From Dictyostelium discoideum (Eukaryota): a stretch of 64,000 nt of DNA. The stretch lies in NCBI GenBank assembly GCA_000004695.1, contig CM000151.3, forward strand, positions 3,264,001-3,328,000, in the 5' to 3' direction. The notes beneath the pieces were generated by a model that did not search any database, had not been told where the DNA came from, and saw only the letters and a program-made list of their open reading frames with translations. Each line of letters begins with the position of its first letter. The first letter of the stretch is position 1. The position numbers and the translations under genes are program-made. Below, piece after piece: positions 14,808 through 51,894 of the stretch.

Positions 14808-16823
14808 TTAATTTTTCATATATAACTCTTTGATTTTATAAAATAGTTCAGAGTCATTGACATCGTCTGGTAATTGATAGTTTGGATCATTTAATAAATT
14901 TGATAAAATTTGTCTTGGAATTTTACCAACTTTTGTTTTTGGTAATTGGTTAATAACTATTATTTTTTTTAAGACTGCCAGTGATTCAATATCTTGCGTG
15001 ATGATATTATTAATTTCATTTTGTAATTTATTTAAATCAATTGATGGATTTTCTTTTAATACCAATATACCAATCGGTGCAGTACGACAATCTGGACTTA
15101 AAATACCAATAGAACAACATTCTAAAACTGATGGATGTTTTAAAATTGATGTGTCAATTGTATTTAATTGAATTTTATTACAACTTATCTTAATTTGATC
15201 ATCTGATCTTGAAACAATTGTATAAAATCCTCTTTGATCTATATAACCTAAATCACCTGAATCATAGTAACCTGGAAACCTTGTAAATAGTTGTTTAAAC
15301 TTTTCATCATTTTTATAAAATGTAATTGCAAAACTGGGTGGCATTGGTAGTTTAAATGCAACTAAACCAATTTCATTTGAATTCAAAACTTCACCTTCTT
15401 CTGAAAGTATTGATGGTCTAATATAAATTGATGGTACGCCAGTGGCTCTATAAGGAATATTTAAAGCATGGACACTAATAAATGAAGTTACGCCAATTTC
15501 ACTTTGACCGTATACTCTTAAACATTTTATTTTTAACTTTTGTTCAATGTATTCTGGAATTGATTCTTCAATTACTTCACCGCCACACCATATTTCTTTT
15601 AAATTTGATAAATCATACTTAGAACGTACAATTGTTCCTTCAGGATCAGTTTTAATAAGGTATCTAAATACAGATGGGGATGGAAATGTATGTGTTACTT
15701 TATGTTTTACAATAGCTATCCATAAATCATCTTCTATATGTTCGTTTTTTATAATACCACCTTCATACATTACCAAGGTGTTTCCTCCAGATAATAAACC
15801 ATAAAAGAAACCATGAAATGATACCCACCCAATATTTGCATTTGAAAATACAATTTGAGGTATATCTGATTCTTTACGGAATGTATAGTATTTAATACCA
15901 ACCATATGCGGACCATTACTTCTTACAACAGCTTTGGTATTACCAGTTGTGCCACTTGTATAAAGTATATATAATGGATGACTTGATTCTACTGGTACAT
16001 ATTCATAAAATGGTGATTGATTATTTTCTTTTAATTTTTTAATTTCATCATACCAACTTAATGTATTTGGAATAGTTGGAATATTTTGAACTTTTTTTAA
16101 TTTTGTTTCATCCAAAACTTCATTTCTAAATAGAGTAATTACATTACTTGGTTTAAAAGTTGATAATTCAATTGCTTCTTTTAAATTTGGTGTAAATGTA
16201 ATGATTTCGTCATTAAAAATACCATAATTTGTTGTAATTATTAATTTTGGTGTAATTGTTTCGATTCTATCTATTAAACTTTTAACCGAATAACCATCGA
16301 ATAATGTACATTGAGTTGCACCAATACGAGCACATGATAACATTGCAATTAATGGTTCTAATGTATTTGCCATAAATATTAAAACATTATCATTTTTTGA
16401 AACATTTAAGTTTAAAAGAACTCTTGAAAATTTACATACTTTTTCATATAATTGATAATAGGTTAATTTAATTGTTTTCTTTAAATATGGACATTCATAA
16501 ATTAATGCATCTTGATCTCTTTTAGCAGGATTTTTAATATGAATGTCTAATAAATTATAACATGTATTTAATTCACCACCTTTAAACCAATCTGGATATA
16601 TTTCATCGCCACTATAAACTTTATCATACATTTTTTCCCTTTTATTTTTAAAAATCTTAGTTTTTGTTTTAATTTTAATATCTCTTTTTTAACAAAGAAA
16701 AAAAAAGATATATATTTACCAAAAAACATTCTTTTTAGCAACCTCATCCCAAAAAGCTTCTGGATTAGAATTTGAATAACTGTTATCATTTAAATAATCA
16801 AAAGGATCACTAAGTTTATACAT
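14808..16823 (-). CDS. Acetoacetyl-CoA synthetase-like AMP-binding enzyme, paralog A (2 exons)
   Basis: - Exon 2: 14808..16638, ORF of 607 aa.
- Exon 1: 16720..16823, MYKLSDPFDYLNDNSYSNSNPEAFWDEVAKKNVFW.
- Intron: 16639..16719 (GTAAAT...AG, phase 2), joining as W|EKMYDKVY.
- Motifs: PDWFKGGELN; P-loop YTSGTTGNTKAVVRSNG; YGQSEIG; FPGYYDSGD; SRSDDQIKI; A10 PKTKVGKIPR.
- Closest architecture is AACS (WFKG..LN, SSGTTGAPK, FSKFPG..GD). Confidence 0.85.
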
Positions 16824-17522
16824 ATTTGTTTTTAATTATTTAATAAAATGAAAATGAAAAATTAAATATAATAAAATACAAATGAAATATTAAAAAAAAA
16901 AAAGAAAAAAAAAATTAATAATACTAAATCATGGAAAAAAAAAATTTATACATAAAAATAAATTTTATTGCACCCGTCATTAAAAATTATTCATATTATG
17001 AATATCCTAAATTACAAAAAGTGAGTAAACTAGAATTATGAAATGAATAAAATTAAATAAAAAAAATATGTCCACTAATAATTTCAATTAAGATTATTTA
17101 AAAGATACATGAAAAAGGTTTATTTAAAATCTCCAAATTTATTCCTACTACTTTTTTTTACATATACCATAATTCATAATAAAAAAAAATAAGAAATTAA
17201 TGTCGCAATAAAAAATATAAATAAATAAAATAATATGGAGAATTTTTTGGGAAAGTGCAAAAATTCTAATGAAAAAAAAAAAAATTCTTATTGTTTGTTA
17301 GATAATATTTTTATATAATAAAATTTTTAATAAACTAATATCAATTTCTAATTAATAATTAATCACACTTTATTATTAAATTATCATAAAATAATTAAAA
17401 AGAATCTGGCCATAAAAAAAATATATTTTAATAAATTAAAAATTGAAAAAATCTTATATTATTTAATTAGAATTGAATATTAATTTGTCATTAAATTATA
17501 AAAAATTTATTGATTTACCATA

Positions 17523-17640
17523 TTGTGAGAAATTTTACTATTGTAATTTCTCATTTTTTAAAACATAAAACTATAATTTAATAATATACAACAATTAATA
17601 GGAAATAATACTATTGAAATTTCTCATTTTTTAAAACATT
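17523..17640. repeat. Tandem direct duplication (~60-bp unit x2)
   Basis: 'tattgtaatttctcattttttaaaacataaaactataatttaata' is followed by the near-identical 'tattgaaatttctcattttttaaaacattaaactatagtttaata'. Confidence 0.8.
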
Positions 17641-17825
17641 AAACTATAGTTTAATATATTGTAGATTATTAAAAACTATAATAAAATGATAAAAAATAAT
17701 GGGTGTACAATAAATATTTAAATAAAAAATATTAAAATATAAGAATTTTTATTTTTTTTTAAATAATTTAACATTTTACTAGGTTTTTTTTTCCCGTGCA
17801 AGATATTTTTTTTTTTTTTTTTTTA

Positions 17826-17961
17826 AATTAAAAAAAGGTTTGAAATTATCATATCTGCCCAATATCTATAGGGTTTTAAAAATTTTCATTCATATATTTT
17901 TTGTAATTATCTTTATTTAAGTTTTGTCTAATTAAATGCCTAGATAAAATGGAGTCCAAAG

Positions 17962-17999
<38 letters not shown>

Positions 18000-19148
18000 A
18001 AATATAAATAGAATCATTTTATATCTTTCTCATTGTTTGAATTAAAAACAAAACAAATTATTTTATATCTTTCTCATTGCTTAGATTGGGATTTTATAAT
18101 TATTTTTTTAAAATTAAATTGTTAAATTTTTTTTTACTGATCAAAATTTTTTCATATCTTTTGAAAAAAAAAAAATAAAAAAAAATCTTAAAAATATAAA
18201 TAAATATTCATTTTAATAACCAAACAGTCTAGTTTTTATTTTTATTTGCAGTTTTTTAAGAAAAAAAAATTTAAAAAAATTTATCTATTTTTCCTTATTT
18301 TCTCTATTTTTTTTTTTTTTTAAGGAATATCTCTTTAGTGGTGATAAAAAATAAAAAAAGGATAGAATCCAAAAAATATGGATAATTAATTAATAATTTG
18401 GATATATGTAAAATAATAAGGAAGGAGGTGGATTAAAAAAACTCTTTTCGTCCCATAGTAAAACACTATTTTTAGTCAAAAAAAAAAAATAATTAAAAAA
18501 AAAAAATCAAAAAAAAAAAAATCAAATAATTTCAAACATATTATTTAAAAGTTTAAATTTTTTTATTTTTTTTTTATATTTTTTATATATTTTTTATATC
18601 TCCTACTTTTATTAAATTAAAAAAAAAATAATCCAAATTATTTTCTTTTTTAATTATTATTGTTGGAGGGAATTTTCCATAAAATTTCACTACAGTAGCG
18701 TAGTGAATTTTATTATTTAATTTGACTACGCTGCTGTAGTGAATTCCTATTGACGGTGCGTTCATGAAGTTAAACCTGGGTGGTGTGTGTTACACAATAT
18801 ACCGTGTGAGAATTCACAATAAGCAAATATTTCAATTTTATTGATGTCGTAGCCTTATTGCGGTTTTAATATTTTGGAAAAAATTAAAAACAGAGGTTGA
18901 AATAGAAACCTTAGTTCTTTTTTAAGTTACAAAATTTGTGCGACTTCTTTCAACTCAACCGATAAAGTTAGAATCCATTTTAACTACCAAATTATATTAT
19001 TTTTATTTTATTCTTATTTATTATATATTTCTTTTTTAATTAAATATTTTTGAAATTATAATAATATTTTAAGTGGGGAATTTGTGTGACATTTTTTTTA
19101 TATTTTGGTTTTTAAATATTATAATGAAACTTTTTGTAAAATTAAATA

Positions 19149-19207
<59 letters not shown>

Positions 19208-19490
19208 AAAATTAAATTTAATTTAAAATTAATTAAATTACAACGGGAGAAAACCCCTTTAAACAAAACAATAAGGATGGAGGTGGATTAAAAAAACTCT
19301 TTTTGTCCCATAGTAAAACACTATTTTTAGTCAAAAAAAAAAAAAAATCAAATAATTTCAAACATATTATTTAAAAGTTTAAATTTTTTTATTTTTTTTT
19401 TATATTTTTTATTTATTTTTTATATCTCCTACTTTTATTAAATTAAAAAAAAATAATCCAAATTATTTTCTTTTTTAATTATTATTACTC
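17826..19490. repeat. Composite dispersed-repeat block, copy 2 (R1, R3, GC-rich hairpin element, R2, R3), 3' of AACS-like gene B
   Basis: Same modules as 13395-14750 but rearranged: R1 17826-18215, R3 18420-18660, R2 18840-19270, R3 19275-19490. From the poly(T) of R2 through the gene the two copies are nearly identical. The hairpin part of R2 is more diverged (about 85%). Confidence 0.8.
18668..18745. repeat. Near-perfect 17-22-bp inverted repeat (hairpin) in a GC-richer ~190-bp insertion unique to repeat copy 2
   Basis: 'cactacagtagcgtagtgaatt' - 16-nt spacer - 'ctacgctgctgtagtgaattc', with one mismatch in the stem. The flanking 18750-18850 is also GC-richer than its surroundings. Confidence 0.7.
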
Positions 19491-19545
19491 TTTTTTTTTT
19501 TTTTTTTTTTTAGAACAAAAACAATTTACAAAAACTTTGCTAAAA

Positions 19546-21561
19546 TTAATTTTTCATATATAACTCTTTGATTTTATAAAATAGTTCAGAGTCATTGACA
19601 TCGTCTGGTAATTGATAGTTTGGATCATTTAATAAATTTGATAAAATTTGTCTTGGAATTTTACCAACTTTTGTTTTTGGTAATTGGTTAATAACTATTA
19701 TTTTTTTTAAGACTGCCAGTGATTCAATATCTTGCGTGATGATATTATTAATTTCATTTTGTAATTTATTTAAATCAATTGATGGATTTTCTTTTAATAC
19801 CAATATACCAATCGGTGCAGTATGGCAATCTGGACTTAAAATACCAATAGAACAACATTCTAAAACTGATGGATGTTTTAAAATTGATGTGTCAATTGTA
19901 TTTAATTGAATTTTATTAAAACCTATCTTAATTTGATCATCTGATCTTGAAACAATTGTATAAAATCCTCTTTGATCTTTATAACCTAAATCACCTGAAT
20001 CGTAGTAACCTGGAAATCTTGTAAATAGTTGTTTAAACTTTTCATCATTTTTATAAAATGTAATTGTAAAACTGGGAGGCATTGGTAGTTTAAATGCAAC
20101 TAAACCAATTTCATTTGAATTCAAAACTTCACCTTCTTCTGAAAGTATTGATGGTCTAATATAAATTGATGGTACGCCAGTGGCTCTATAAGGAATATTT
20201 AAAGCATGGACACTAATAAATGAAGTTACGCCAATTTCACTTTGACCAAATACTCTTAAACATTTTATTTTTAACTTTTGTTCAATATATTCTGGAATTG
20301 ATTCTTCAATTACTTCACCACCACACCATATTTCTTTTAAATTTGATAAATCATACTTAGAACGTACAATTGTTCCTTCAGGATCAGTTTTAATAAGGTA
20401 TCTAAATACAGATGGGGATGGAAACGTATGTGTTACTTTATGTTTTACAATAGCTATCCATAAATCATCTTCCATATGTTTGTTTTTTATAATACCACCT
20501 TCATACATTACCAAGGTGTTTCCTCCAGATAATAAACCATAAAAGAAACCATGAAATGATACCCACCCAATATTTGTATGTGAAAATACAATTTGAGGTA
20601 TATCTGATTCTTTACGGAATGTATAGTATTTAATACCAACCATATGCGGACCATTACTTCTTACAACAGCTTTGGTATTACCAGTTGTGCCACTTGTATA
20701 AAGTATATATAATGGATGACTTGATTCTACTGGTACATATTCATAAAATGGTGATTGATTATTTTCTTTTAATTTTTTAATTTCATCATACCAACTTAAT
20801 GTATTTGGAATAGTTGGAATAGTTTGAACTTTTTTTAATTTTGTTTCATCCAAAACTTCATTTCTAAATAAAGTTATTACATTACTTGGTTTAAAAGTTG
20901 ATAATTCAATTGCTTCTTTTAAATTTGGTGTAAATGTAATGATTTCGTCATTTAAAATACCATAATTTGTTGTAATTATTAATTTTGGTGTAATTGTTTC
21001 GATTCTATCTATTAAACTTTTAACCGAAGAACCATCGAATAATGTACATTGAGTTGCACCAATACGAGCACATGATAACATTGCAATCAATGGTTCTAAT
21101 GTATTTGCCATAAATATTAAAACATTATCATTTTTTGAAACATTTAAATTTAAAAGTACTCTTGAAAATTCACATACTTTTTCATATAATTGATAATATG
21201 TTAATTTAATTGTTTTCTTTAAAAATGGACATTCATAAATTAATGCATCTTGATCTCTTTTAGCAGGATTTTTAATATGAATATCTAATAAATTATAACA
21301 TGTATTTAATTCACCACCTTTAAACCAATCTGGATATATTTCATCGCCACTATAAACTTTATCATACATTTTATCCCTTTTATTTTTAAAAATCTTAGTT
21401 TTTGTTTTAATTTTAATATCTCTTTTTTAACAAAGAAAAAAAAAGATATATATTTACCAAAAAACATTCTTTTTAGCAACCTCATCCCAAAAAGCTTCTG
21501 GATTAGACTTTGAATAACTATTATCATTTAAATAATCAAAAGGATCACTAAGTTTATACAT
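19546..21561 (-). CDS. AACS-like AMP-binding enzyme, paralog B (2 exons); recent duplicate of A
   Basis: - Exon 2: 19546..21376 (607 aa).
- Exon 1: 21458..21561, MYKLSDPFDYLNDNSYSKSNPEAFWDEVAKKNVFW.
- Intron: 21377..21457.
- About 14 aa differences from A (about 97.7% identity).
- Same motif set as A. Confidence 0.85.
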
Positions 21562-22263
21562 ATTTGTTATTAATTATTTAATAAAATGAAAATGAAAAAT
21601 TAAATATAATAGTGCACAAACTCTAATGAAAAAAAAAAAAAAAAAAAAAAATTCTTATTGTTTGTTAGATAATATTTTTATATAATTAAAAATAAAAAAT
21701 TTTAATTAAAATAAATTAAATTATTTCCACTAAAATATTTTAGAAATTCTACACACCCCAGTGTGTTTTTTAATTTAATTTAATTTATTTTAATTAAAAT
21801 TTTTATTTTTATGTTGTTTGTTAAAAATGCTAATAATAAGTAAATATTTTTTTAAAGTGCTTGTTACGATTAAAATTAATTTTTTTTTTAAAGATTTTTC
21901 AACATTTGAAACTTATTAAAAAAAAAAAAAATTTTAATCATTACAAACAATATTTATATTATTATTATTTTTTTTATTTAATATTGATTAATCACAGTTT
22001 ATGCATTAAAGGAAATAAACAATAATTTATATCCGTCCTTATTATTTTTTTTGAATTTTTAACCTTTTTTTTAAAACAAAACTTCTAATGTAATCAAAAG
22101 GTAAAACACTATTTTTTATCAAACCAATAAAAAAAAAAAAAATATAATTAAATTTTTTTATTTTTTTATTTATTAAATTTAAAAAATAAATAATTCAAAT
22201 TTTTTTTTTTTTATTATTTTTTTTTCAAAAAATAAAAACAAATTTTTAAATTAAGTTTACTAA

Positions 22264-24281
22264 CTATAAATTTTTCATATATAATTCTTTGATTTCATAA
22301 AATATTTCAGTGTCACTGACATTATGGGGTAGTTGATAATTTGAATCATTTAATAAATTTGACAAAATTAGTCTTGGAATTTTACCAACTTTTGTTTTTG
22401 GTAATTGGTTAACAATTAAAATTTTTCTTAAGACTGCACATGATTCAATATCTTGTGTAATGATATTATTAATTTCATTTTGTAATTTAATTAAATCAAT
22501 TGATTGATTTTCTTTTAATACTAATACACCAATTGGTACACTACGAATAACTGGATCATAAATACCAATCGAACAACATTCTAAAACTGATGGGTGTTTT
22601 AAAATTGACGTTTCAATTGTATTTAATTGAACTTTTTTATAACCGATTTTAATTTGATCATCTGATCTCGAAACAATTGTATAAAATCCTCTTTGATCTT
22701 TATAACCTAAATCACCGGTATTATAATAACCTGGGAATTTAGAAAATAATTGTTTAAACTTTTCATCATTTTTATAATATGTAGTTGCAAAACCTGGTGG
22801 CATTGGTAGTTTAATTGCAACAAAACCAATTTCATTTGAATTCAAAACTTTACCTTCTTCTGAAAGTATTGATGGTTTTATGAAAATTGATGGTATGCCA
22901 GTGGCTTTATAAGGCATATTTAAAGCATGAACACTAATAAATGAAGTTATGCCAATTTCACTTTGACCAAATACTCTTAAACATTTTATTTTTAACTTTT
23001 GTTCAATGTATTCTGGAATTGATTCTTCAATTACTTCACTACCACACCATATTTCTTCTAAATTTGATAAATCATACTTTGAACTGATGATTTTTCCTTC
23101 AGGATCAGTTTTAATAAGGTATCTAAATACAGATGGGGATGGAAATGTATGTGTTACTTTATGTTTTACAATTGTTTTCCATAAATCATCTTCAATATGT
23201 TTGTTATTTATAATACCACCTTCATACATTACAAATGTATTCCCTACAGATAGTAAACCATAAAAGAAACCGTGAAATGATACCCACCCAATATTTGAAT
23301 ATGAAAATACAATTTGAGGTATATCTGATTCTTTACGGAATCTATAATATCTAATACTAACCAAATGTGGACCATTACTTCTAACAACAGCTTTAGCATT
23401 ACCAGTTGTACCACTTGTATATAGTATATATAATGAATGACTTGATTCTACTGGTACATATTCATAAAATGGTGATTGATTATTTTCTTTAAGTTTTTTA
23501 ATTTCATCATACCAACTTAATGTATTTGGTATCGTTGGTATATCATTTACTTTTTTTAAATTTGTTTCATCCAAAACTTCATTTCTAAATAAAGTTATTA
23601 CATTACTTGGTTTAAAAGTTGATAATTCAATTGCTTCTTTTAAATTTGGTGTAAATGTAATGATTTCATCATTTGATATACCATAGTTTGTTGTAATTAT
23701 TAATTCTGGTGTAATTGTTTCGATTCTATCTATTAAACTTTTAACTGAATAACCATCGATTATTGTACAATGAGTTGCGCCAATACGAGCACATGATAAC
23801 ATTGCAATTAATGGTTCTAATGTATTTGACATATAAATTAAAACAACATCATTTTTTGAAACATTTAAATTTAAAAGTACTCTTGAAAATTCACATACTT
23901 TTTCATATAATTGATAATATGTTAATTTCTCAGTTTTCTTTAAAAATGGACATTCATAAATTATTGCATCTTGATCTCTTTTAGTAGGATTTTTTGTATG
24001 AATGTCTAATAAATTATAACATGTATTTAATTCACCACCTTTAAACCAATCTGGATAAATTTCATCACCACTATAAACTTTATCATACATTTTATCCCTT
24101 TATTTTAAAAATATTAGTTTTTGTTTTAATATTAAAATCTCTTTTTTTATAAAGAAAAAAAAAAAAGATATATTTACCAAAAAACATGCTTTTTTGCCAC
24201 TTCATCCCAAAAATCCTCAGGATAAGAATTTGCATAATTACTGTCATTTACATAATTAAAAGGATCACTAAGCTTATACAT
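22264..24281 (-). CDS. AACS-like AMP-binding enzyme, paralog C (2 exons)
   Basis: - Exon 2: 22264..24097 (608 aa).
- Exon 1: 24178..24281, MYKLSDPFNYVNDSNYANSYPEDFWDEVAKKHVFW.
- Intron: 24098..24177.
- P-loop GNAKAVV; A10 PKTKVGKIPR. Confidence 0.85.
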
Positions 24282-24702: not shown

Positions 24703-24753
24703 AATAAATAAAAAATGAGTAATAAATGATTAAAAATAGTTATTTTTAACTTT

Positions 24754-26290
24754 TCATATATAATTCTTTAATTTCATAAAATATTTCAATGTCAATGATA
24801 TTATCTGGAAATTGAAAATTTGAATCATTAAAAACTTTGGTCTTGGAGTTTTACCAGCTTTGGTTTTTGGTAATTGATTAACAACTACAATTTTTCTCAA
24901 GACTGCTAACGATTCAATATCTTGTGTAATGATATTATTAATTTCAGATTGTAATTTATTTAAATCAATTGAGTTGATTGATCTTGTTTTTGCTTTAAAA
25001 CTTTTTTTCAATGTATTCTGGGATTGATTCTTCAATTACTTCACCTCCAACCATAAATTCTTTTAAATTTGATAAACCATACTTTGAACGTATAATTGTT
25101 CCTTCAGGATCAGTTTTAATAAAGTATCTAATAGTGCTTGCCAATGACAATGCATGTGTCACTTTATGTTTTTCAATGGTATTCCAAAAGTCAACTTCAA
25201 TATATTTGTTTTTTATAATACCACCTTCATACATTATAAATGTAGATCCAGATGACAACAAGCCTTATAGGGAACCATGAAATGATATCCATCCGACATT
25301 TGAAAATGTAAATAATTTTATATTTTCATATTTTTCTGAAATATATCTGTTAAAGTAATTCATACAAACTAAATTTGGACCATTACTTCTTACAACTGCT
25401 TTAGCATTACCAGTTGTACCACTTGAATAAATAATATATAGTGGATGACTTGATTCTACTGGTACATATTCATAAAATGGTGATTGATTATTTTCTTTAA
25501 GTTTTTTATTTTCATCATACCAACTTAATGTATTTGGTATCGTTGGTATATCTTTTACTTTCTTTAAATCTGATTCGCTTGTAATATCATTTCTAAATAA
25601 AGTAATTACATTACTTGGTTTAAAAGTTGATAATTCAATAGATTCTTTTAAATTTGTGATGAAATTAATGATTCCATCATTAAAAATACCATAGTTTGTT
25701 GTAATTATTAATTTTGGTGTAATTGTTTCAATTCTATCTATTAAACTTTTAACTGAATAACCATCGAATAATACACAATGAGTTGCACCATTATGAGTAC
25801 ATGATAAAATTGCAATTGGTGCTTCAACCGTATTTGCCATATATATTAAAACATTATCATTTTTTGAAATATTTAAATTTAAAAGTACTCTTGAAAATTC
25901 ACATACTTTTTCATATAATTGATGATATGTTAATTTTACAGTTTTCTTTAAATATGGACATTCATAAATTAATGCATCTTGATCTCTTTTTAATGGATTT
26001 TGAACTTGTTTATCTTTATTTTTAGACTTGTTTCATATAAATTATAACATGTATTTAATTCACCCTTTAAACCAATCTGGATACATTTCATCACCACTAT
26101 AAACTTTATCATACATTTTATCCCTTTTAAAAATATTAGTTTTTGTTTATATTTTTTATATAAAGAAAAAAATGTATTATCTTACCAAAAAACATTCTTT
26201 TTTGCAACTTCATCCCAAAAAGCCTCAGGAAAAGAATTTGCATAATTGAAATCATTTAAATTATTAAAAGGATCACTAAGTTTAAACATT
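24754..26290 (-). pseudogene. AACS-like pseudogene D: multiple frameshifts and an internal deletion
   Basis: - The homologous reading frame is split across ORFs 24754..25035, 24995..25261 and 25265..25840.
- Further frameshifted N-terminal pieces run to ~26110. One example is 'ccctttaaaccaatctgg', which lacks 2 nt relative to the 'ccacctttaaaccaatctgg' of intact copies.
- An exon-1-like segment survives at ~26185..26290 (MFKLSDPFNNLNDFNYANSFPEAFWDEVAKKNVFW).
- About 140 codons of the middle are missing. Confidence 0.8.
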
Positions 26291-26881: not shown

Positions 26882-28902
26882 TTAATTTTTCATATATAAT
26901 TCTTTGATTTCATAAAATATTTCAACGTTATTGACATTATCAGGTAATTGAAAATTCGAGTCATTTAAAAACTTTGATATAATTGGTCTTGGAATTTTAC
27001 CAGTTTTTGTTTTTGGTAATTGATTAACGATTACAATTTTTCTTAAGACCGCTAATGATTCAATATCTTGTTTAATTATATAATTTATTTCATTTTGTAA
27101 TTTATTTAAATCAATTTGTTGAATTGATTGATCTTGTTGTTGTAGTTGTTTTAAAACCAATAAGGCTATTGGTACACTATAACAAGTTGGATCGTTAATA
27201 CCAATTGAACAACATTCTAAAACTAATGGATGTTTTAGTATTGATGTTTCAATTGTATTTAATTGAACTTTATTACCACTGATTTTAATTTGATCATCTG
27301 ATCTTGAAACAATTGTATAGAATCCATTTTCATCTTTAAAACCTAAATCACCAGGATTGTAGTAACCTGGAAATTTTGAAAATAATTGTTTAAACTTTTC
27401 ATCATTTTTATATAATGTAGTTGCAAAACTTGGTGGCATTGGTAATTTAAATGCGATTTCACCAATTTCGTTAACACCTAATTCTTTACCATCGTCTGAA
27501 AATATTGATGGTCTAATGAAAATTGATGGTAAACCAGTTGCGTAGTATGGGATATTAATATGATCAAAACAATATAAATAAGCTATACCAATTTCAGTTT
27601 GACCATATCCCCTTGTTGGTTTTATTTTTAACTTTTTTTCAATGTATTCTGGGATTGATTCTTCAATTACTTCACCTCCGACCCATATTTCTTTTAAATT
27701 TGATAAATCATACTTTGAACGTATAATTGTTCCTTCAGGATCAGTTTTAATAAAGTATCTAATAGTGTTTGCCAATGATAATGTATGTGTCGCTTTATGT
27801 TTTTCAATGGTATTCCAAAAGTCAACTTCAATATGTTTGTTTTTAATAATACCACCTTCATACATTACAAATGTAGATCCAAATGACAACATACCATATA
27901 GGAAACCATGAAATGATACCCATCCGACACTTGAAGTTGTCAATAATGTTGTACATTCATATTTTTCTGAAATATATCTGTCAAAGTAATTCATACAAAC
28001 TAAATTTGGACCATTACTTCTTACAACTGCTTTAGCATTACCAGTTGTACCACTTGAATAAATAATATATAGTGGATGACTTGATTCTACTGGAACATAT
28101 TCATAAAATGGTGATTGATTATTTTCCTTGAATTTTTTAATTTCATCATACCAACTTAATGTATTTGGTATCGTTGGTATATCTTTTACTTTCTTTAAAT
28201 CTGATTCGCTTGTAATATCATTTCTAAATAAAGTAATTACATTACTTGGTTTAAAAGTTGATAATTCAATTGCATCTTTTAAATTTGGTGTAAATGTAAT
28301 AATTTCATCATTAAAAATACCATAGTTTGTTGTAATTATTAATTTTGGTGTAATTGTTTCAATTCTATCTATTAAACTTTTAACTGAATAACCATCGAAT
28401 AATACACAATGAGTTGCACCAATACGAGCACATGATAACATTGCAATTAATGGTTCTAAAGTATTTGCCATATAAATTAAAACATTATCATTTTTTGAAA
28501 TATTTAAATTTAAAAGTACTCTTGAAAATTCACATACTTTTTCATATAATTGATAATATGTTAATTTTATAGTTTTCTTTAAATATGGACATTCATAAAT
28601 TAAAGCGTCTTGATCTCTTTTTAATGGATTTTGAACTTGAATATCTAAAACATTATAACATGTATTTAATTCACCACCTTTAAACCAATCTGGATACATT
28701 TCATCACCACTATAAACTTTATCATACATTTTATCCCTTTTAAATATATTAGTTTTTGTTTTTAATTTTTTTTTTTGTAGAAAAATGGATTATCTTACCA
28801 AAAAACATTCTTTTTTGCAACTTCATCCCAAAAAGCCTCAGGATAAGAATTTGCATAATTAAAATCATTTAAATAATTAAAAGGATTACTAAGTTTAAAC
28901 AT
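26882..28902 (-). CDS. AACS-like AMP-binding enzyme, paralog E (2 exons)
   Basis: - Exon 2: 26882..28736 (615 aa).
- Exon 1: 28799..28902, MFKLSNPFNYLNDFNYANSYPEAFWDEVAKKNVFW.
- P-loop YSSGTTGNAKAVV.
- Q-rich insert LKQLQQQDQSIQQIDLNKL before the A10 motif PKTKTGKIPR. Confidence 0.85.
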
Positions 28903-38170: not shown

Positions 38171-38299
38171 AAATATTGGATAAAATAAACAAATTTTTGA
38201 AAAAAAAAAAAAAAAAAAAAATATTTGTTTATCTAATGCATTATAAAAATAATAATAATAATTATAATTATTATTTAAAAAAAAGGAGAAAGGTTAAAA

Positions 38300-38893: not shown

Positions 38894-38922
38894 AAATTTA
38901 AAACAAATTTTAAATAAATAAA

Positions 38923-38956
<34 letters not shown>

Positions 38957-39395
38957 TAGCGTTTTAAAACACCACTATTTTTATTTTTTATTTGCATTAA
39001 AATGAATTTAAATAAAAAAAAAAAAAATGAAAAATAAAAATAAAATTTGAAAAAACAGATAAAGATGAAGATATGGATAATTAATTTATTTTATTTTATT
39101 TTATTTATTTTTTTTTTCAAACCTAAAAATATTCCAAAACATTCTTTACGACTTTTTTTTAGGTCAAACGAATCCCGAAAAACAAAAGAAGAAAAAAATT
39201 AAAATAAAATCGAAAAATAATAAAATTAAAAATAAAATAAATTAAAATAAAAATAAAAAAAAAAAAAAAAATTAAAATAAAAACGTGCTAAAAAAAAAAA
39301 AAAAAAAACTAGTCTTTAAAGTTATTTATATATACAATCCTAGGTGACAACATTATTATAGGGATGAATTAATTACAACAAATAAATATTCAAAC

Positions 39396-40331
<936 letters not shown>

Positions 40332-40461
40332 TTAAATTAATAATAATAATAATAATAAATAATAATAATAATAAATAATAATAATAATAAATAATAATAA
40401 TAAATAATAATAATAGTTAGTAATAATAAAATAAAAAAATTTAAATTATATGTTATACACC

Positions 40462-40468
40462 CCCACAA
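40462..40468 (+). promoter_or_regulatory. DUSE-like motif (CCCACAA) of the type found ~60 bp upstream of Dictyostelium ncRNA genes
   Basis: 'acaCCCCCACAAtttg' lies in the HPP-AACS intergenic region, and a T11 run follows at 40631-40641. See the findings. Weak on its own. Confidence 0.25.
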
Positions 40469-40774
40469 TTTGTAATTATCCTTATTTTTTAATTTATTTT
40501 TTATTTTATCTGATTGGTTCAAAATTTAAATAAAGATAATAATAATAAAAAAAAATTAAAAATAAATTAATTAATATTGTATATCGCAGTTAATAGTGGT
40601 TATAAATCTACACCAGATTTAATAATTGTTTTCCACCTTTTTTTTTTTTACTTTTATTATTTATTTTATTTTATTATTTAGTTATTATTTTTTTTAAACT
40701 TTTTTTATATAAAACTATTATTTGTTTTATTTTAATATCATTTTATTTAATAATACATATATTACCTTATAAAA

Positions 40775-42775
40775 ATGTATAAGTTTAATTATGAAAATGA
40801 TATTGATTTTGCAAATAACCAACCAATAGAATTTTGGGATGAAGTTGCAAAGGATTTAGTTCATTGGTAAGTTTTTTTTATTTTTCTAAATTGTCTTGAC
40901 AAAAAACTAATAATTTAAAAATAAAAGGGATAAAATGTATGAAAAAGTTTATAGTGATGATGAAATATATCCAGATTGGTTTAAAGGTGGTGAATTAAAT
41001 ACATGTTATAATGTTTTAGATATTCATATTAAAAATCCAGAAACAAGAGATCAAGATGCATTAATTTATGAATGTCCATATTTAAAGAAAACTGTAAAAT
41101 TAACTTATTATCAATTATATGAAAAAGTATGTGAATTTTCAAGAGTACTTTTAAATTTAAATATATCAAAAAATGATAATGTTTTAATTTATATGTCAAA
41201 TACATTAGAACCATTAATTGCAATGTTATCATGTGCTCGTATTGGTGCAACTCATTGTGTGTTATTCGATGGTTATTCAGTTAAAAGTTTAATAGATAGA
41301 ATTGAAACAATTACACCAAAATTAATAATTACAACAAATTATGGTATTTTTAATGATGAAATTATTAATTTCATACCAAATTTAAAAGAATCAATTGAAT
41401 TATCAACTTTTAAACCAAGTAATGTAATTACTTTATTTAGAAATGATATTACAAGCGAATCAGATTTAAAGAAAGTAAATGATATACCAACGATACCAAA
41501 TACATTAAGTTGGTATGATGAAATTAAAAAATTCAAAGAAAATAATCAATTACCATTTTATGAATATGTACCAGTAGAATCAAGTCATCCATTATATATA
41601 CTATATACAAGTGGTACAACTGGTAATTCTAAAGGGGCTGTTAGAAGTAATGGTCCACATTTAGTTGGTATTAAATATCAAACATTGATACAAAAGGGTA
41701 AAACAAAAGTAGTATTTTATCATACAAGTGTTGGGTGGATATCAATTCATAATGCTTTTAATGGTTTATTATCACTTGGATATACATTGGTTATGTTTGA
41801 AGGTGGGCTTACTAAAACAAAACATATGGAAGATGATATTTGGGAAGTTATTGAAAGAAATAAAGTAACTTGTGCATCCATAATGGCTAAAGCAATTAGA
41901 TACTTAATTAAAGTTGATCCTGAATGTAAAAATTTACATTCAAAGTATGATTTATCAAATTTAAAAGAAATAATAGTTGGTGGAGAACCAATTGAAGAAT
42001 CAATTCCAAATTATATTCAAGAGAAATTAAAAGTAAAGTCAATTCGTGTATACGGTCAAACTGAAACTGGAGCATGTTATTTTTATTGTTATGATTATAA
42101 AAATTTAAAAATTCCTATTAACACAAGTGGCTTTCCATTTTCATCTTTAAAAGCAATGATTTTTTCAGATGATGGCAAAGAATTAGGTGTTAATGAAATT
42201 GGAGAGCTTGTATTTAAATTACCATTACCACCAAGTTTTGCAACTACATTTTATAAAAATGATGAAAAGTTTAAACAATTATTTACAAAATTCCCAGGTT
42301 ACTATAACCCTGGTGATTTAGGATTTAAAGATGAAAATAATTGTTATGGTGTTGTTTCAAGATCAGATGATCAAATTAAAATCAGTGGTAATAAAGTTCA
42401 ATTAAATAAAATTGAAACATCAATTTTAAAACATCCATTAGTTTTAGAATGTTGTTCAATAGGTATTTATAATCCAGATTGTTATAATGTACCAATAGCT
42501 TTTTTAGTTTTAAAACAACAAGAAGATCAATCAATTCAACAAATTGATTTAAATAAATTACAATCTGAAATTAATATAATCATTTCAAAAGATATAGAAA
42601 ATTTTGCAATTTTAAGAAAAACTTTAATAGTTACACAAATACCGAAAACCAAAGCTGGTAAAATTCAAAGACAAATCATTTCTAAATATTTAAATGATAT
42701 AAATTATGAATTACCAGATAATGTTTGTGATGTTGAAATCTTTTATAAAATCAAGGATTTATATAATAATGTTAA

Positions 42776-42779
<4 letters not shown>
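40775..42779 (+). CDS. AACS-like AMP-binding enzyme, paralog H (2 exons)
   Basis: - Exon 1: 40775..40866, MYKFNYENDIDFANNQPIEFWDEVAKDLVHW(+tg).
- Intron: 40867..40927 (GTAAGT...AAAAG).
- Exon 2: 40928..42779, ...W|DKMYEKVYSDDEIYPDWFKGGELN...
- P-loop YTSGTTGNSKGAV; YGQTETG; A10 PKTKAGKIQR. Confidence 0.85.
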
Positions 42780-43761: not shown

Positions 43762-45770
43762 ATGTATAAATTTAACTATGAAAATGAAATTGATTTAGCA
43801 AATAACAGACCAATAGAATTTTGGGATGAAGTTGCAAAGGATTTAGTTTATTGGTAAGTTTTTATTTCTTTTTTTTATTTTTTCAATTGTCATTGCAAAA
43901 AACTAATAATTTAAAATTAAAAAAAAAGGGATAGAATGTATGATAAAGTTTATAGTGGTGATGAAATTTATCCAGATTGGTTTAAAGGTGGTGAATTAAA
44001 TACATGTTATAATGTTTTAGATATTCATATAAAAAATCCAGAAACAAGAGATCAAACTGCATTAATTTATGAATGTCCATTTTTAAACAAAAATATAAAA
44101 TTAACCTATTATCAATTTTATGAAAAAGTATGTGAATTTTCAAGAGTACTTTTAAATTTAAATATATCAAAAAATGATAATGTTTTAATTTATATGTCAA
44201 ATACAATTGAAGCACCAATTGCAATGTTATCATGTGCTCGTATTGGTGCAACTCATTGTGTGTTATTCGATGGTTATTCAGTTAAAAGTTTAATAGATAG
44301 AATTGAAACAATTACACCAAAATTAATAATTACAACAAATTATGGTATTTTTAATGATGAAATTATTACATTTACACCAAATTTAAAAGATGCAATTGAA
44401 TTATCAACTTTTAAACCAAGTAATGTAATTACTTTATTTAGAAATGATATTACAAGCGAATCAGATTTAAAGAAAGTAAATGATATACCAACGATACCAA
44501 ATACATTAAGTTGGTATGATGAAATTAAAAAATTCAAAGAAATTAATCAATTACCATTTTATGAATATGTTCCAGTAGAATCAAGTCATCCATTATATAT
44601 AATATATACAAGTGGCACAACTGGTAGTGCTAAAGCAGTTGTTAGAAGTAATGGTCCATATATGGTAGGTATTAAATATCAAACATTGATACAAAAGGGT
44701 AAAATAAAAGTTGTGTTTTCTCATACAAGTATTGGCTGGGTATCATTTCATAATCTATTATATGGTTTATTTTCAGTTGGATATACATTAGTTATGTCTG
44801 AAGGAGGAGTGACAAAACCAAAACATATGGAAGATGATATTTGGGAAATTATTGAAAGAAATGAAGTAAGTTGTGCATTCACAATGGCTAAAGCAATTAG
44901 ATACTTAATTAAAGTTGATCCTGATTGTAAAAATTTACATTCAAAGTATGATTTATCTAATTTAAAAGAAATGGTACTTGGTGGAGAACCAATTGAAGAA
45001 TCAATTTCAAATTATATTCAGGAGAAATTAAAAGTTCAATCAACTCGTGTATATGGTCAAACTGAAACAGGTGTCGTTTATTTTTAGGTTTTGATAATAA
45101 AAATTTAAAAATTCCAATTAATACATGTGGAGTTTCATTTCCATCTTTAAAAGCAAAGGTTTTTTCAGATGATGGTAAGGAATTACCTTTGTATGAAATT
45201 GGTGAGCTTGTATTTAAATTACCTTTACCACCAGGTTTTACAACTACATTTTATAAAAATGATGAAAAGTTTAAACAATTATTTACAAAATTTCCAGGTT
45301 ACTATTACCCTGGTGATTTAGGATTTAAAGATGAAAATAATTGTTATGGTGTTGTTTCAAGATCAGATGATCAAATTAAAATCAGTGGTAATAAAGTTCA
45401 ATTAAATAAAATTGAAACATCAATTTTAAAACATCCATTAGTTTTAGAATGTTGTTCAATAGGTATTAATAATCCAGATTGTTATAATGTACCAATTGGT
45501 ATATTAGTTTTAAAACAACAAGAAGAAAATCAATCAATTCGACAAATTGATTTAAATAAATTACAATCTGAAATTAATACAATAATATCAAAGGATATAG
45601 AAAATTTTGCAATTTTAAGAAAAATTTTAATAGTTCCACAATTACCAAAAACTAAAGTTGGTAAAACTCAAAGACAAATCATTTCTAAATATTTAAATGA
45701 TACAAATTTTCAATTACCAGATAATGTTTGTGATGTTGAAATCTTTTATAAAATTAAAGATTTATAATAA
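43762..45770 (+). pseudogene. AACS-like pseudogene I (duplicate of H) with in-frame TAG and frameshift
   Basis: - Exon 1 (43762..43853) and its intron are intact.
- Exon 2 from 43929 reads through to 'YGQTETGVVYF*' at 45087. There H has 'tatttttattgttatgattat', I has 'tatttttaggttttgataat': a TAG plus a 1-nt deletion.
- The homologous C-terminus continues in another frame (ORF 45189..45767).
- An orphan fragment of the AACS N-terminus (NTCYNVLDIHMKNPLKIDQDALIYECPY*) also sits at 43470-43570. Confidence 0.75.
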
Positions 45771-46728: not shown

Positions 46729-48764
46729 ATGTATACATTAAGCCAACCATTCAATTATGAAAATGATTATAAATTCTCAATAAACACCGACCCAATTTCA
46801 TTTTGGGATCAAGTAGCCACTAAATATGTTTATTGGTATGCATACAATAAAAAAAAACATAATTAGTTAAATAAATAATTAAATTTTTTATAAATATAAT
46901 TTAAAAATAAAAAAGGGATAAAATGTATGATAAAGTTTATAGTGGTAATGAAATTTATCCAGATTGGTTTAAAGGTGGTGAATTAAATACATGTTATAAT
47001 TTATTAGATAGACAAGTTCAGAATCCATTAAAAAAAGATCAAGTTGCATTAATTTATGAATGTCCATATTTAAAGAAAACTGTAAAATTAACTTATTATC
47101 AATTATATGAAAAAGTATGTGAATTTTCAAGAGTACTTTTGAATTTAAATGTTTCAAAAAATGATAATGTTTTAATTTATATGGCAAATACAGTTGAAGC
47201 ACCAATTGCAATGTTATCATGTGCTCGTATTGGTGCAACTCATTGTGCTTTATTCGATGGTTATTCAGTTAAAAGTTTAATAGATAGAATTGAAACAATT
47301 ACACCAAAATTAATAATTACAACAAATTTGGGAGTTGGACTTGATGAAATTGTTGATATTACTACAAATTTAAAAGAAGCAATTGAATTATCAACTTTTA
47401 AGCCTGACAATGTAATAACACTTTATAGAAATGATATTGTTTATAATAATAATAATTTCCAAACAATAATACCAAATTCATTAAATTGGGAAGAAGAAAT
47501 TAAAAAAATTAAAATTAATAATCAATCACCATTTTATGATTATGTACCAGTAGAATCAAGTCATCCAATCTATTTAATTTATACAAGTGGTACAACTGGT
47601 AATTCTAAACCAGTTGTAAGAAGTAATGGTAGTAATTTGGTTGGACTTTTATATCATTGGAATTGTTTAAGTTCAAAGGTTAATAATGATGAAAATGTAG
47701 TTTTATTTTCTGCAACTAGTGTTGGATGGGTGTCATTCCATATGTTCTTTTATGCATCATTATCAAAAGGAAATACATTTGTAATGTTTGAAGGTGGTTT
47801 CTTAAAACAAAATAATGTTGAAGATGACATTTGGGCAACCATTGAAAAACATAATGTAAACATTTATTTAGCATTACCAATTGTAATGAGATATCTTAAG
47901 AAAATGGATCCCAATGCTGAAAGATTACATTCAAAATATGATATATCACGTTTAAAGCAAGTTTGGATTGGTGCTGAAGTTATTGAAAAATCAATTCAAG
48001 ATTATATTGAAAATAAATTAAATGCTGAATCAATTGGTTTATATGGTCAAACTGAAAGTGGAATGATGTATATTTATGAATATTCAAGTATAAATAAAAC
48101 ATATGATACAGTAGGTATACCATCACCATTTATTAAACCATCAATATTATCTGAAGATGGTAAAGAGTTGGGTGTTAATGAAATTGGTGAATTCTCTCTC
48201 AAATTACCATTACCACCTGGATTTGCGACTACATTTTATAAAAATGATGAACAATATAAAAAATTATTTTCAAAATTTCCAGGTTATTATAATTCTGGTG
48301 ATTTAGGTTATAAAGATGAAAATGGATATTATGGTATTGTTTCAAGAGCTGATGATCAAATTAAAATTAGTGGTAATAAAGTTCAACTAAATACAATTGA
48401 ATCATCAATTTTGAAACATCCAAATGTTATTGAATGTTGTTCAATTGGTATTAATGATTATGATTGTTATAAAGCACCAATTGGTATATTGGTTTTAAAA
48501 AAACAAGATTCAATTTTAGATTTCAATCAATTAAAAAATGAAATTAATAATATTATTAATGATGATATTGAAAGTTATGCTGAACTAAAACAAATTATCA
48601 TTGTAAATCAATTACCAAAAACTAAAAGTGGTAAAATTCAAAGACATATACTTTCTAATTATTTAAATAACAATAATTTTAAATTACCAGATAATATTGA
48701 AAATCTTCAATTATTTTATAACATAAAAGATTCTTTTATTAAAAACTCAAATAAAAATATTTAA
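46729..48764 (+). CDS. AACS-like AMP-binding enzyme, paralog J (2 exons), most divergent intact copy
   Basis: - Exon 1: 46729..46835, MYTLSQPFNYENDYKFSINTDPISFWDQVATKYVYW.
- Intron: 46836..46915 (GTATGC...AAAAG).
- Exon 2: 46916..48764 (613 aa).
- P-loop YTSGTTGNSKPVV; YGQTESG; A10 PKTKSGKIQR. Confidence 0.85.
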
Positions 48765-49339: not shown

Positions 49340-49700
49340 ATGTTTAAATTAAGTGATCCTTTTGATTATGAAAATGATTACAATTTCTCTCAAATTAATC
49401 CAATTTAATTTTGGGACGAAGCTCACTGGTATGCACTTCACAAAAAAAAAAAAAAAAAAAAAAAAAAACAAATTTTAACATATAATAAATAAAAAAAAAA
49501 AAAAAAAGGGATAAAATGTATGATAAAGTTTATAGTGGTGATGAAATTTATCCAGATTGGTTTAAAGGTGGTGAATTAAATACATGTTATAATTTAATAG
49601 ATATTCATATTAAAAATCCATTAAAAAGAGAATAAGATGTATTAATTTATGAATGTCCATTTTTAAAGAAAACAATTAAAAGAGTTTCAGACCAATTTTT
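49340..49700 (+). pseudogene. Truncated AACS-like gene fragment K (exon 1 + first ~55 codons of exon 2, with stop)
   Basis: - 'atgtttaaattaagtgatccttttgattatgaaaatgattacaatttctctcaaattaatccaatttaattttggga': an in-frame TAA sits in the exon-1-like part.
- After an intron-like segment comes 'MYDKVYSGDEIYPDWFKGGELNTCYNLIDIHIKNPLKRE*'.
- Homology is lost after ~49700. Confidence 0.75.
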
Positions 49701-49862
49701 TTCTTTTTTAAATTTGCTGATTAATTTTTATTAAGATTTTTTGACAAAAAAAAAAAAAAAAATCTTCGATAAAATAAAAAAAAAAAAAAAAAAGATTAAT
49801 AAACTTTTTTTTTTTTTTTTTTTTTTTTTAATTTTATTTTATTAAAATAATTTTGGAAAAAA

Positions 49863-51894
49863 ATGAAATTAAGTGATCCTTTTGATTATGAAAATGATCT
49901 AAAATATGCAGAATCCCAACCTGTTTCATTTTGGGATGACATTGCCAAAAAATATATACATTGGTAAGTTTAAAAATTTTGTAAAATAAATTATTAATAA
50001 TTTAAAAAATATAATAAAATTCCAATTATACCAATAAATAATTTAAAAAAAAAGGGATAAAATGTATGATAAAGTTTATAGTGGTGATGAAATGTATCCA
50101 GATTGGTTTAAAGGTGGTGAATTAAATACATGTTATAATGTTTTAGATATTCAAGTTCAAAATCCATTAAAAAGAGATCAAGACGCATTAATTTATGAAT
50201 GTCCATTTTTAAAGAAAACTGTTAAATTAACTTATTATCAATTATATGAAAAAGTATGTGAATTTTCAAGAGTACTTTTAAATTTAAATATTTCAAAAAA
50301 TGATAATATTTTAATATTTATGGCAAATACAGTTGAAGCACCAATTGCAATGTTATCATGTGCTCGTATTGGTGCAACTCATTGTGTACTATTCGATGGC
50401 TATTCAACAAAAAGTTTAATAGATAGAATTGAAGCTGTAAGACCAAAAGTTATTATTACCTCAAATTATGGTATTTTAAATGAGGAAATTATTACATTTA
50501 CACCAAATTTAATTGAAGCAATTGAAATATCAACTTTTAAACCAGATCATGTAATTACACATAATAGAGATTTAATTAGTTCCGATGCACAATTATCAAT
50601 AATTGAAACTATACCTACTGTACCATCTTCTTTGGATTGGGACTTGGAAATCAACAAAATTAAAGAAAACAATCAAACACCATTCTATGAATATGTTACA
50701 GTAGAATCAAGTCATCCACTTTACATTATTTATACAAGTGGTACAACTGGTAATTCAAAAGGAGTTGTTAGAAGTAATGGTCCACATTTAGTTTGTTTTG
50801 GTTATCTTTGGCCATCAATTGTTCAAAAAAATACTACTTTCTTTTCTCATACTAGTATAGGATGGGTATCGTTTCATTCATTTTTGTATGCTTCATTATT
50901 ACATGGATGTTCATTTGTGATGTTTGAAGGTGGAATTGTAAAACCAAAACATATGGAAGATGATATTTGGTCAATTGTTGAAAAGCATAAAGTTAGTGCA
51001 TTTCTAACATTAGCAAAAACAATAAGATATTTAAATAAAGTTGATCCAGATGCAAAACAAATACATTCAAAATATGATATTTCAAGTTTAAAATCAATTT
51101 GGAATGGTGGTGAAGTTATTGAAGATTCAATTCCAGAATATATTGAAAACAAACTAAAATCAAGACCATCTATTGGATATGGTCAAACTGAAACTGGTTA
51201 TTTGTATTTATTCGATTACATAAAATCAAAAAAAAATCCATACAACACAGTTGGTCCACCATCACCATTTGTCTACCCATCAATTTTATCAGAAGATGGT
51301 ATTGAATTACCAGTGAATCAAATTGGTGAAATCGTATTCAAATTACCATTACCACCTGGATTCGCTTCAACATTTTATAAAAATGATGAACAATTTAAAA
51401 AAGTTTTAACAAAATTCCCAGGTTATTATAGTAGTGGTGATTTAGGTTATAAAGATGAAAATGGATATTATGCTATCGTTTCAAGAGCAGATGATCAAAT
51501 TAAAATTGGTGGTAATAAAGTTCAATTAAACACAATTGAAACATCAATTTTAAAACATCCAAATGTTATTGAATGTTGTTCAATTGGTATTTACAATCCA
51601 GATTGTTATAATAAACCAATTGGTTTATTAACTTTAAAACAACAAGATTCAAATGTCGACTTAATTCAATTAAAAAATGAAATTAATAGTATCATCACAC
51701 AAGATATTGATAAATTTGCTCAATTAACACATATAATAATTGTTGAACAATTACCAAAAACTAAAAGTGGTAAAATCCAAAGATTAATCATTTCTAAATT
51801 TTTAAATGATAATAATTTTAAATTACCTGATCATGTATTTGAAAGTCAACAAATATATACAGATATTAAAAATTTATATTTAAATAATTTATAA
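49863..51894 (+). CDS. AACS-like AMP-binding enzyme, paralog L (2 exons)
   Basis: - Exon 1: 49863..49963, MKLSDPFDYENDLKYAESQPVSFWDDIAKKYIHW.
- Intron: 49964..50054 (GTAAGT...AAAAG).
- Exon 2: 50055..51894 (610 aa).
- P-loop YTSGTTGNSKGVV; YGQTETG; A10 PKTKSGKIQR. Confidence 0.85.

Follow-up and report, generated by a model that had tools for sequence, protein, structure and literature searches.

Acetyl-CoA synthetase (Acs) is limited to acetate by a pocket tryptophan, Trp414 (Trp416 in the Methanothermobacter enzyme), which is glycine in medium-chain enzymes, and the W-to-G change lets in C4 to C8 and branched acids (PMC10455477, PMC8383264). The medium-chain enzyme of Methanosarcina, MacsMa, has Gly-x-Lys in its A8 motif and uses CoA despite having none of the Acs arginines; Gly524 of A8 has been described as strictly conserved and required to open the pantetheine tunnel, and the MacsMa variant G459A stays active (PMC10455477). 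The same tryptophan-to-glycine change is found throughout a 37-kb cluster on chromosome 2 of Dictyostelium discoideum AX4, where 12 paralogs (A to L) lie in two divergent arms at positions 14808 to 51894 of the 64,000-nucleotide window analyzed here (contig CM000151.3, positions 3,264,001 to 3,328,000). On balance, and with moderate confidence, we regard this main asl cluster as a birth-and-death family with gene conversion, derived from a propionyl-CoA synthetase gene of the PrpE/ACSS3 type, whose enlarged-pocket enzymes probably activate acids above propionate.

The domain composition of the paralogs places them in the ANL superfamily. PF00501 was matched in all copies, with 159 to 195 bits in all full-length ones, and PF16177 (ACAS_N) in those with an intact N terminus, both as anticipated by the original prediction made for this DNA. 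PF13193 scores of 47 to 62 bits were obtained for every one of six intact copies scanned (A, C, E, H, J, and L) and for the C-terminal part of I. Matches to both PF00501 and PF13193 exceeded the gathering score, and copy A has all three domains.

Within the superfamily, the nearest enzymes are PrpE and Acs. When five copies were scored with NCBIfam models, the Acs models TIGR02188 and NF001208 gave 316 to 350 bits (cutoffs, 725 and 657), the PrpE models gave 309 to 354 bits (NF007815; cutoff, 955) and 266 to 306 bits (TIGR02316; cutoff, 827), and the acetoacetyl-CoA synthetase (AACS) models gave 145 to 170 bits (TIGR01217; cutoff, 520.9) and 174 to 200 bits (NF002937; cutoff, 639). No model passed its curated cutoff, and the Acs and PrpE models scored ∼1.3 to 2.4 times above those for AACS. 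In a phmmer search of the PDB, the best match was PrpE of Dinoroseobacter shibae (5GXD, 315 bits), compared with 261 bits for yeast ACS1 and 83 bits for AACS (4WD1). An AlphaFold2 model of copy L (mean pLDDT, 91.2) retrieved 5GXD first in Foldseek and Acs structures next, with TM-scores of 0.85 to 0.89 to Acs structures in the adenylation conformation and no AACS among the top 50. The nearest sequences outside the dictyostelids are bacterial propionyl-CoA synthetases, at 36 to 37% identity. The label “AACS-like,” under which the paralogs were originally described with an expectation of best matches to AACS, is therefore ruled out by NCBIfam, the PDB sequence search, and Foldseek alike; the best matches fall in another adenylate-forming subfamily, an outcome that the prediction had itself given as grounds for abandoning the label. 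Its remark that housekeeping AACS is normally a single-copy gene is also beside the point, because the nearest subfamily is PrpE/Acs and the relevant ancestor is a PrpE/ACSS3-type gene.

Kinship to these enzymes is nevertheless distant. With PrpE/ACSS3 (5GXD and Escherichia coli PrpE), the array family shares the top sequence and fold match, the order ACAS_N, AMP-binding, and AMP-binding_C, a C-terminal tail beyond the A10 motif, and all adenylation motifs, but identity is only 31 to 37% and scores fall far under the equivalog cutoffs. The array family further differs in having W414G, A386G, and G312F, in the replacement of His525-Arg526 by Asn-Lys, in the loss of Arg584, in the absence of an N-terminal extension, and in its 12 tandem copies in place of one. 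Acs is the second-best match and also contains ACAS_N, but Trp414, Val386, and the CoA-binding Arg191, Arg194, and Arg584 are all replaced in the array family. The medium-chain enzymes (MacsMa, 3ETC, and the ACSM type) share Gly at position 414 and an A8 motif of the Gly-x-Lys rather than the Gly-His-Arg form. Family-level kinship with them is lacking, however: 3ETC scores 97 bits, the MbcS model gives 128 to 159 bits (cutoff, 850), and an ACAS_N domain is, by the present comparison, absent from Macs proteins. AACS shares the ANL superfamily and an ACAS_N-type N terminus but is clearly more distant.

The active site and substrate pocket were compared by aligning the copies to E. coli Acs, which has the same length as the Salmonella enterica enzyme and provides the numbering, and to E. 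coli PrpE. All eight intact copies (A, B, C, E, F, H, J, and L) retain the A3 P-loop, Glu417 of A5, Asp500 of A7, Arg515 of A8, the hinge Asp517, and Lys609 of A10. In all 10 alignable copies, both Trp414 and Val386 (Ala in PrpE) are Gly, so that the Trp414 and Ala386 of the small PrpE pocket are missing from the array; the canonical dictyostelid orthologs keep the Trp. Position 312, Gly in Acs, is Phe in every copy except H (Ile), Thr311 is Ser in most, and Arg526 is Lys. The signature of medium-chain enzymes, Gly for the pocket Trp together with Gly-x-Lys in A8, is thus present in proteins that do not belong to the medium-chain family by sequence. Copies A and B differ at 15 residues, including the equivalents of Acs 191, 304/305, 413, and 523/524.

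The copies were delimited from the list of open reading frames (ORFs) and by tblastn with copies E and L as queries (Table 1). The proposed arrangement of 12 members in two divergent arms was borne out, with seven members (A to G) on the minus strand and five (H to L) on the plus strand, both arms being transcribed outward from a 6.8-kb island at 33968-40774. The window has a G+C content of ∼21%, and the ORF of copy L is 100% identical to AX4 protein DDB_G0273211 of the 8.48-Mb chromosome 2 record. Each ORF opens with an internal “MYDKVYSG,” and ACAS_N of Pfam is matched only from profile position 29 onward. The N terminus is encoded by a separate 5′ exon of ∼35 codons, found in all copies except K, that is followed by an intron of 61 to 91 nucleotides (nt) with donor GTAA(A/G/T)N and acceptor AG; gene spans begin 160 to 200 nt beyond the ORFs. 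Spliced models of A, B, C, H, and L match deposited proteins exactly.

Table 1. Array copies, remnants, and island genes, in window positions (aa, amino acids)
Feature	ORF or other extent	Gene span	Strand	State and remarks
Copy A	ORF 14808-16631	14808-16823	(-)	Intact, 644 aa; DDB_G0273365 = DDB_G0273687
Copy A exons	Exon 1 16823-16720; intron 16719-16639; exon 2 to stop codon at 14808		(-)	Splice model equals P0034 exactly
Copy B	ORF 19546-21369	19546-21561	(-)	Intact, 644 aa; 98% identical to A; DDB_G0273229 = DDB_G0273689
Copy C	ORF 22264-24090	22264-24281	(-)	Intact, 645 aa; DDB_G0273305 = DDB_G0273691
Copy D	tblastn 24749-26116	24749-26289	(-)	Pseudogene; tblastn pieces in different frames
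Copy E	ORF 26882-28729	26882-28902	(-)	Intact, ~652 aa; 5′ exon inferred by analogy with annotated copies
Copy F	ORF 29184-31040	29184-31234	(-)	Intact, ~655 aa; 93% identical to E
Copy G	tblastn 31584-33754	31569-33967	(-)	Most divergent (61-64% identity); Ser/Gly-rich insertion
Island gene 1	34556-35316		(-)	Cys-rich protein; signal-peptide-like N-terminal exon
Island gene 2	36432-37880		(+)	Class-3 lipase (Lipase_3), poly-Asn tract inside; PF01764, E = 3.7e-18
Island gene 3, DDB_G0273217	38300-38893		(+)	Secreted Cys-rich CfaA_B_C (counting-factor-associated) family; PF11912, E = 2.8e-26
Island gene 4	39396-40331		(+)	HPP-family membrane protein, poly-Asn N terminus; PF04982, E = 2.6e-53
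Copy H	ORF 40935-42779	40775-42779	(+)	Intact, 647 aa; DDB_G0273215 = DDB_G0273709
Scrap, 30 codons	43484-43573		(+)	Homologous to ORF residues 20-49; tblastn 80-83% identity; absent from earlier list
Copy I	tblastn 43936-45767	43762-45767	(+)	Pseudogene in AX4; otherwise 87% identical to H
Copy J	ORF 46923-48764	46729-48764	(+)	Intact, ~650 aa; orthologs P0012, P0018, P0036
Fragment K	49516-49728		(+)	75 codons, residues 1-75 only; in-frame stop; no recognizable 5′ exon
Copy L	ORF 50062-51894	49863-51894	(+)	Intact, 646 aa; DDB_G0273211 = DDB_G0273717; 100% match to P0001

Four members are broken to different degrees. In D, exon 1 and residues 1 to 367 can be discerned, residues ∼368 to 526 are deleted, and the rest is frameshifted, leaving a longest ORF of 191 amino acids. 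The lesion in I is a frameshift plus a TAG stop at 45085-45090, directly after the A5 motif, and K is a fragment. G had been taken as unbroken, but a frameshift at ∼31745-31750 takes its C-terminal ∼57 residues, and with them the catalytic A10 motif (PKTKSGK), out of the reading frame. Its ratios of nonsynonymous to synonymous substitution rates (dN/dS) against the other copies, 0.47 to 0.59, are the highest in the array, and the copy is probably decaying. In another D. discoideum assembly, GCA_054883475.1, its locus is called as a 709-amino-acid product (37 + 672 residues). The (Ser-Gly)n insertion of G, at ∼32250-32560, is a low-complexity expansion typical of Dictyostelium.

The family stems from a duplication, in group-4 Dictyostelium, of the dictyostelid PrpE/ACSS3-type gene, and later tandem duplications enlarged it within the D. 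discoideum species complex. Canonical PrpE/ACSS3-type proteins were retrieved by a second database search from D. purpureum (76217), Heterostelium, and Acytostelium; they retain “YWQTE” (with Trp414), “GHR,” and “PKTRSGK” and have an N-terminal extension wherever the N terminus is complete. The same search returned further divergent paralogs in D. purpureum. In neighbor-joining trees, the array family nests inside the dictyostelid PrpE/ACSS3-type clade, with bootstrap values of 99% for all dictyostelids, 100% for group 4, and 100% for the array family together with D. purpureum 92742. The latter is a single gene, for which no synteny with the array flanks was found when tested. Orthologs in at least some of the sister species D. 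citrinum, D. dimigraforme, D. firmibasis, and D. cf. discoideum exist for each of the lineages L, J, H/I, and ABC+EF, for a pair on chromosome 1 (DDB_G0267544 and DDB_G0268272), and for a “K-like” lineage.

A second cluster of three members (∼658, 659, and 667 amino acids) is present in GCA_054859355.1, a more divergent D. discoideum assembly (∼92 to 94% DNA identity), at L003 7237-15323, on the same contig as the array and ∼1 Mb from it. Intact, array-resident members of this lineage occur in D. cf. discoideum, D. citrinum, and D. firmibasis. The DNA upstream of K matches the L003 genes over a longer stretch, 425 nt at 83%, which weakly suggests that K may be a relic of this “DdW_11572/3” lineage; the 70 residues of K do not discriminate between lineages.

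Duplication has extended over a long period, as originally proposed: the main lineages have orthologs in sister species, and the pairs A/B, E/F, and H/I are young, with synonymous divergence (dS) of 0.04, 0.12, and 0.13, respectively. Pairwise protein identity among the paralogs ranges from 61 to 98%. The earlier estimate of ∼98% for A/B was accurate, and that of ∼50% for J or L versus A was too low (measured, 64 to 65%). By self-blastn, A and B belong to a segmental duplication spanning 13375-21653, in which 13375-13785 and 14004-16916 recur at 17800-18217 and 18750-21653 with 95 to 96% DNA identity; the duplicated unit is 4.4 to 4.7 kb.

Divergence is distributed as a mosaic along the genes. 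The proportion of synonymous differences is 0.14 to 0.27 in codons 1 to 240 versus 0.40 to 0.50 in codons 241 to 540, and the proportion of nonsynonymous differences peaks (0.26 to 0.36) in codon columns 241 to 480, the segment containing positions 310 to 312, 386, and 414. Over the first 180 codons, E (28729-28190) and H (40935-41474), which lie in opposite arms, have 96% nucleotide identity, equal to that of E/F, versus 69% in the pocket segment. E also shares identical tracts with I (140 nt) and L (125 nt), both of which lie in the opposite arm. Together, the 5′ identity between arms and the long identical tracts point to gene conversion between the inverted arms, which keeps the first ∼180 to 240 codons nearly uniform.

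The array is already cataloged under dictyBase “asl” names. DDB_G0273223 (aslO-1) and DDB_G0273227 (aslI-1) are both listed as “putative acetyl-CoA synthetase” (PMC7078664, Table S1), and both are very probably array members because their identifiers fall between those of H and B. Both were detected in vegetative cells, with log2 fold changes of −0.85 for aslO-1 and −1.76 for aslI-1 on the same sheet as DDB_G0273217, a gene of the central island (PMC7078664). Literature searches by gene identifier and enzyme name found no study devoted to these genes and one RNA-seq paper that names some of them.

In the explanation that we favor, duplication of a dictyostelid gene for a PrpE/ACSS3-type propionyl-CoA synthetase founded the family and tandem duplication expanded it, while frameshifts and deletions removed members (D, I, K, and probably G). 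Each intact gene encodes a two-domain ANL-superfamily enzyme with all adenylation motifs and without the N-terminal extension, and the predicted chemistry is carboxylate + ATP → acyl-AMP + PPi, followed by acyl-AMP + CoA → acyl-CoA + AMP. The enzymes are probably cytosolic; their C termini (-MKN, -KNL, -KIN, -NVK, -KNI, and -NNL), read by eye, misfit the canonical peroxisomal targeting signal PTS1, [SAC][KRH][LM]. Judged from the aligned residues, they probably work like medium-chain acyl-CoA synthetases on carboxylic acids larger than propionate (branched, medium chain, or substituted). Since the pocket-bearing segment holds most of the amino acid divergence, substrate range probably varies among the paralogs. 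By analogy, such birth-and-death dynamics may resemble those of families that handle variable environmental or dietary compounds. Neofunctionalization, as originally suggested, agrees with the presence of W414G and V386G in all copies and with the concentration of change in the pocket segment, but less well with the small number of lineage-fixed sites.

Several observations weigh against this explanation. The enlargement of the pocket rests on four aligned positions, and Phe at 312 could partly refill the space. The CoA-contacting Arg191, Arg194, and Arg584 of Acs are not conserved, and Gly524 of A8, nearly invariant across ANL enzymes, is retained in E, F, H, I, J, and L but replaced in A (Cys), B (Phe), C (Tyr), and G (Ser); CoA ligation by A, B, C, and G is accordingly an assumption (the A8 motifs of A, B, and C lie at ∼15190, ∼19930, and ∼22650 on the minus strand). 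Only neighbor-joining trees were made, and long branches could distort their deep nodes. Among the 273 columns conserved within lineages, 4 carry at least three lineage-specific residues; we therefore do not claim fixed specialization of the lineages, and the few fixed sites fit drift or relaxed constraint as well as they fit fixed specialization. Ortholog dN/dS values against GCA_054859355.1 (0.10 for L, the most constrained copy, and 0.16 to 0.31 for the others, with 0.26 for the C lineage) indicate purifying but fairly weak constraint, and these values and those between paralogs (0.25 to 0.60) are probably overestimates, as dS by NG86 is compressed by the extreme A+T codon bias.

Alternatively, the array might be mainly a dosage amplification, or neutral redundancy, of propionate and acetate activation in which most copies are becoming pseudogenes. 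Four of the 12 members (D, I, K, and G) are already broken, copy content varies between strains, and the paralog dN/dS values and the paucity of lineage-fixed sites fit this view. We nevertheless consider it unlikely: the Trp that confers C2/C3 specificity is lost in all copies, eight ORFs of >600 codons remain open in a genome of ∼22% GC, and ortholog dN/dS values are 0.10 to 0.31, with distinct lineages retained in at least four species. It is rather unlikely, too, that some members, especially A, B, and C, have given up CoA thioester formation and, as acyl-adenylate ligases, transfer the acyl moiety to a different acceptor, e.g., a carrier protein, an amine, or water. The residues that replace Gly524 in A, B, C, and G and the absence of the three arginines from all copies speak for such a function, as does the finding that A and B, although 98% identical, differ exactly at the 523/524 equivalents. 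The Macs enzyme, however, uses CoA without the Acs arginines, and its G459A variant keeps activity; moreover, the A10 lysine and hinge Asp are kept in the array, no insertion of the fatty acyl-AMP ligase (FAAL) type is present, and the dN/dS of 0.26 between C-lineage orthologs implies that the gene is still constrained. Equally doubtful is a toolkit of PrpE-derived, enlarged-pocket ligases without a presequence that diversifies rapidly and divides the tasks, in which some members would make unusual acyl-CoAs for secondary metabolism (e.g., polyketide starters) and A, B, and C, having lost the tunnel glycine, would now be CoA-independent acyl-adenylate ligases serving a different acceptor. If that were true, a PrpE/ACSS3 enzyme of primary metabolism would have been recruited and would have radiated within a few closely related amoeba species.

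The dictyostelid lineage that hosts the family is known for its many polyketide synthase (PKS) genes, and the proposal that AACS-like enzymes radiated so as to provide this repertoire with unusual acyl-CoAs as starters or extenders draws on the specificity of the family to that PKS-rich lineage and on a pocket that is enlarged compared to those of Acs and PrpE, making non-acetate acyl-CoAs plausible. We judge it improbable. The AACS part fails in NCBIfam, the PDB, and Foldseek, the 64-kb window contains no PKS gene, no paper linking these genes to polyketides was found, and expression in the only data set found, which does not cover development, is vegetative and mildly lower on bacteria, not a developmental, PKS-like pattern. 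An assembly artifact, i.e., an expanded or collapsed repeat, is scarcely credible, even though A and B are 98% identical as proteins and the window lies within a region present in two copies in AX4. Between the A and B units, 4 to 5% of DNA positions differ, and both D. dimigraforme and a further D. discoideum assembly have syntenic arrays. The independent assembly GCA_054883475.1, which is colinear with window positions 4772-55770 at 99.6 to 99.9%, reproduces the gene order, both A and B, the D fragments (called as products of 294 and 152 amino acids), and the lesion in I, which gene model P0035 skips, so the artifact that the original prediction named as a possible objection was not encountered. 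The sole difference is the absence of 727 bp just 3′ of copy B (18754-19480), attributable either to a structural polymorphism or to a local difference in assembly; the paralogous stretch 3′ of copy A (∼14008-14735) is present in that assembly.

Strains and species differ in the content of the array. GCA_054859355.1 has the same arms and flanks with other gene content: four full-length genes are called in the plus arm, including a 648-amino-acid gene in the slot of I, and six are visible in the minus arm, including an intact 650-amino-acid gene in the slot of D and an extra E-like gene. A single A/B-type gene is present (ACTFIW_011947, in the cluster of A). The closest DNA matches of D in that assembly are E-type genes, and one-to-one orthology of D with any gene there could not be established because gene conversion blurs the relationship. 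In D. dimigraforme, the plus arm has six genes and lies beside a large minus-strand gene where the window has TRAPPC10.

All AX4 array proteins checked carry two gene identifiers and two accession numbers (e.g., DDB_G0273211 = DDB_G0273717). Chromosome 2 of Ax3/Ax4 bears a 750-kb inverted duplication (PMC2643946), and the paired identifiers place the window inside it, so that AX4 contains the whole array twice. Gene knockouts and RNA-seq mapping in Ax3/Ax4 therefore need care.

Correction of the mislabel, from AACS to PrpE/ACSS3-derived enzymes with W414G and V386G, connects the array to substitutions that experiments on Acs have tied to longer and branched substrates and turns a set of “hypothetical proteins” into a concrete biochemical question, that of eight intact, related enzymes differing mainly in the pocket region. 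The locus also clearly illustrates, on a small scale, birth-and-death evolution with gene conversion between inverted arms. Beyond these points, it amounts to an ordinary, lineage-specific enlargement of an enzyme family.

Besides the island genes, the neighbors of the array in the window are a P-type ATPase, a tetratricopeptide repeat (TPR) protein, and TRAPPC10; a search of the window for tRNA genes was negative. For the island, the lipase and HPP proteins that had been predicted were recovered by Pfam and the predicted Cys-rich protein proved to belong to the CfaA_B_C family, but the DPBB assignment was not confirmed, as island gene 1 had no Pfam match even at E = 1. DDB_G0273217 is the marker “K5,” with a log2 fold change of +2.6 on exposure to Klebsiella pneumoniae (PMC7078664), and positions 38396-38416 within it match a published quantitative PCR primer. 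The poly-Asn tracts of the lipase and HPP genes are low-complexity expansions typical of Dictyostelium.

Directly 3′ of copy L, four consecutive minus-strand ORFs at 52025-56190 (617, 188, 206, and 285 amino acids) are exons of one TRAPPC10-like gene, called as a product of 1442 to 1462 amino acids in other assemblies. At 12482-12847, on the minus strand, a 121-amino-acid Cys/His-rich ORF (C-x-C...H-x-x-x-H patterns) without a Pfam match is a gene call in two other assemblies, where it adjoins the last array member.

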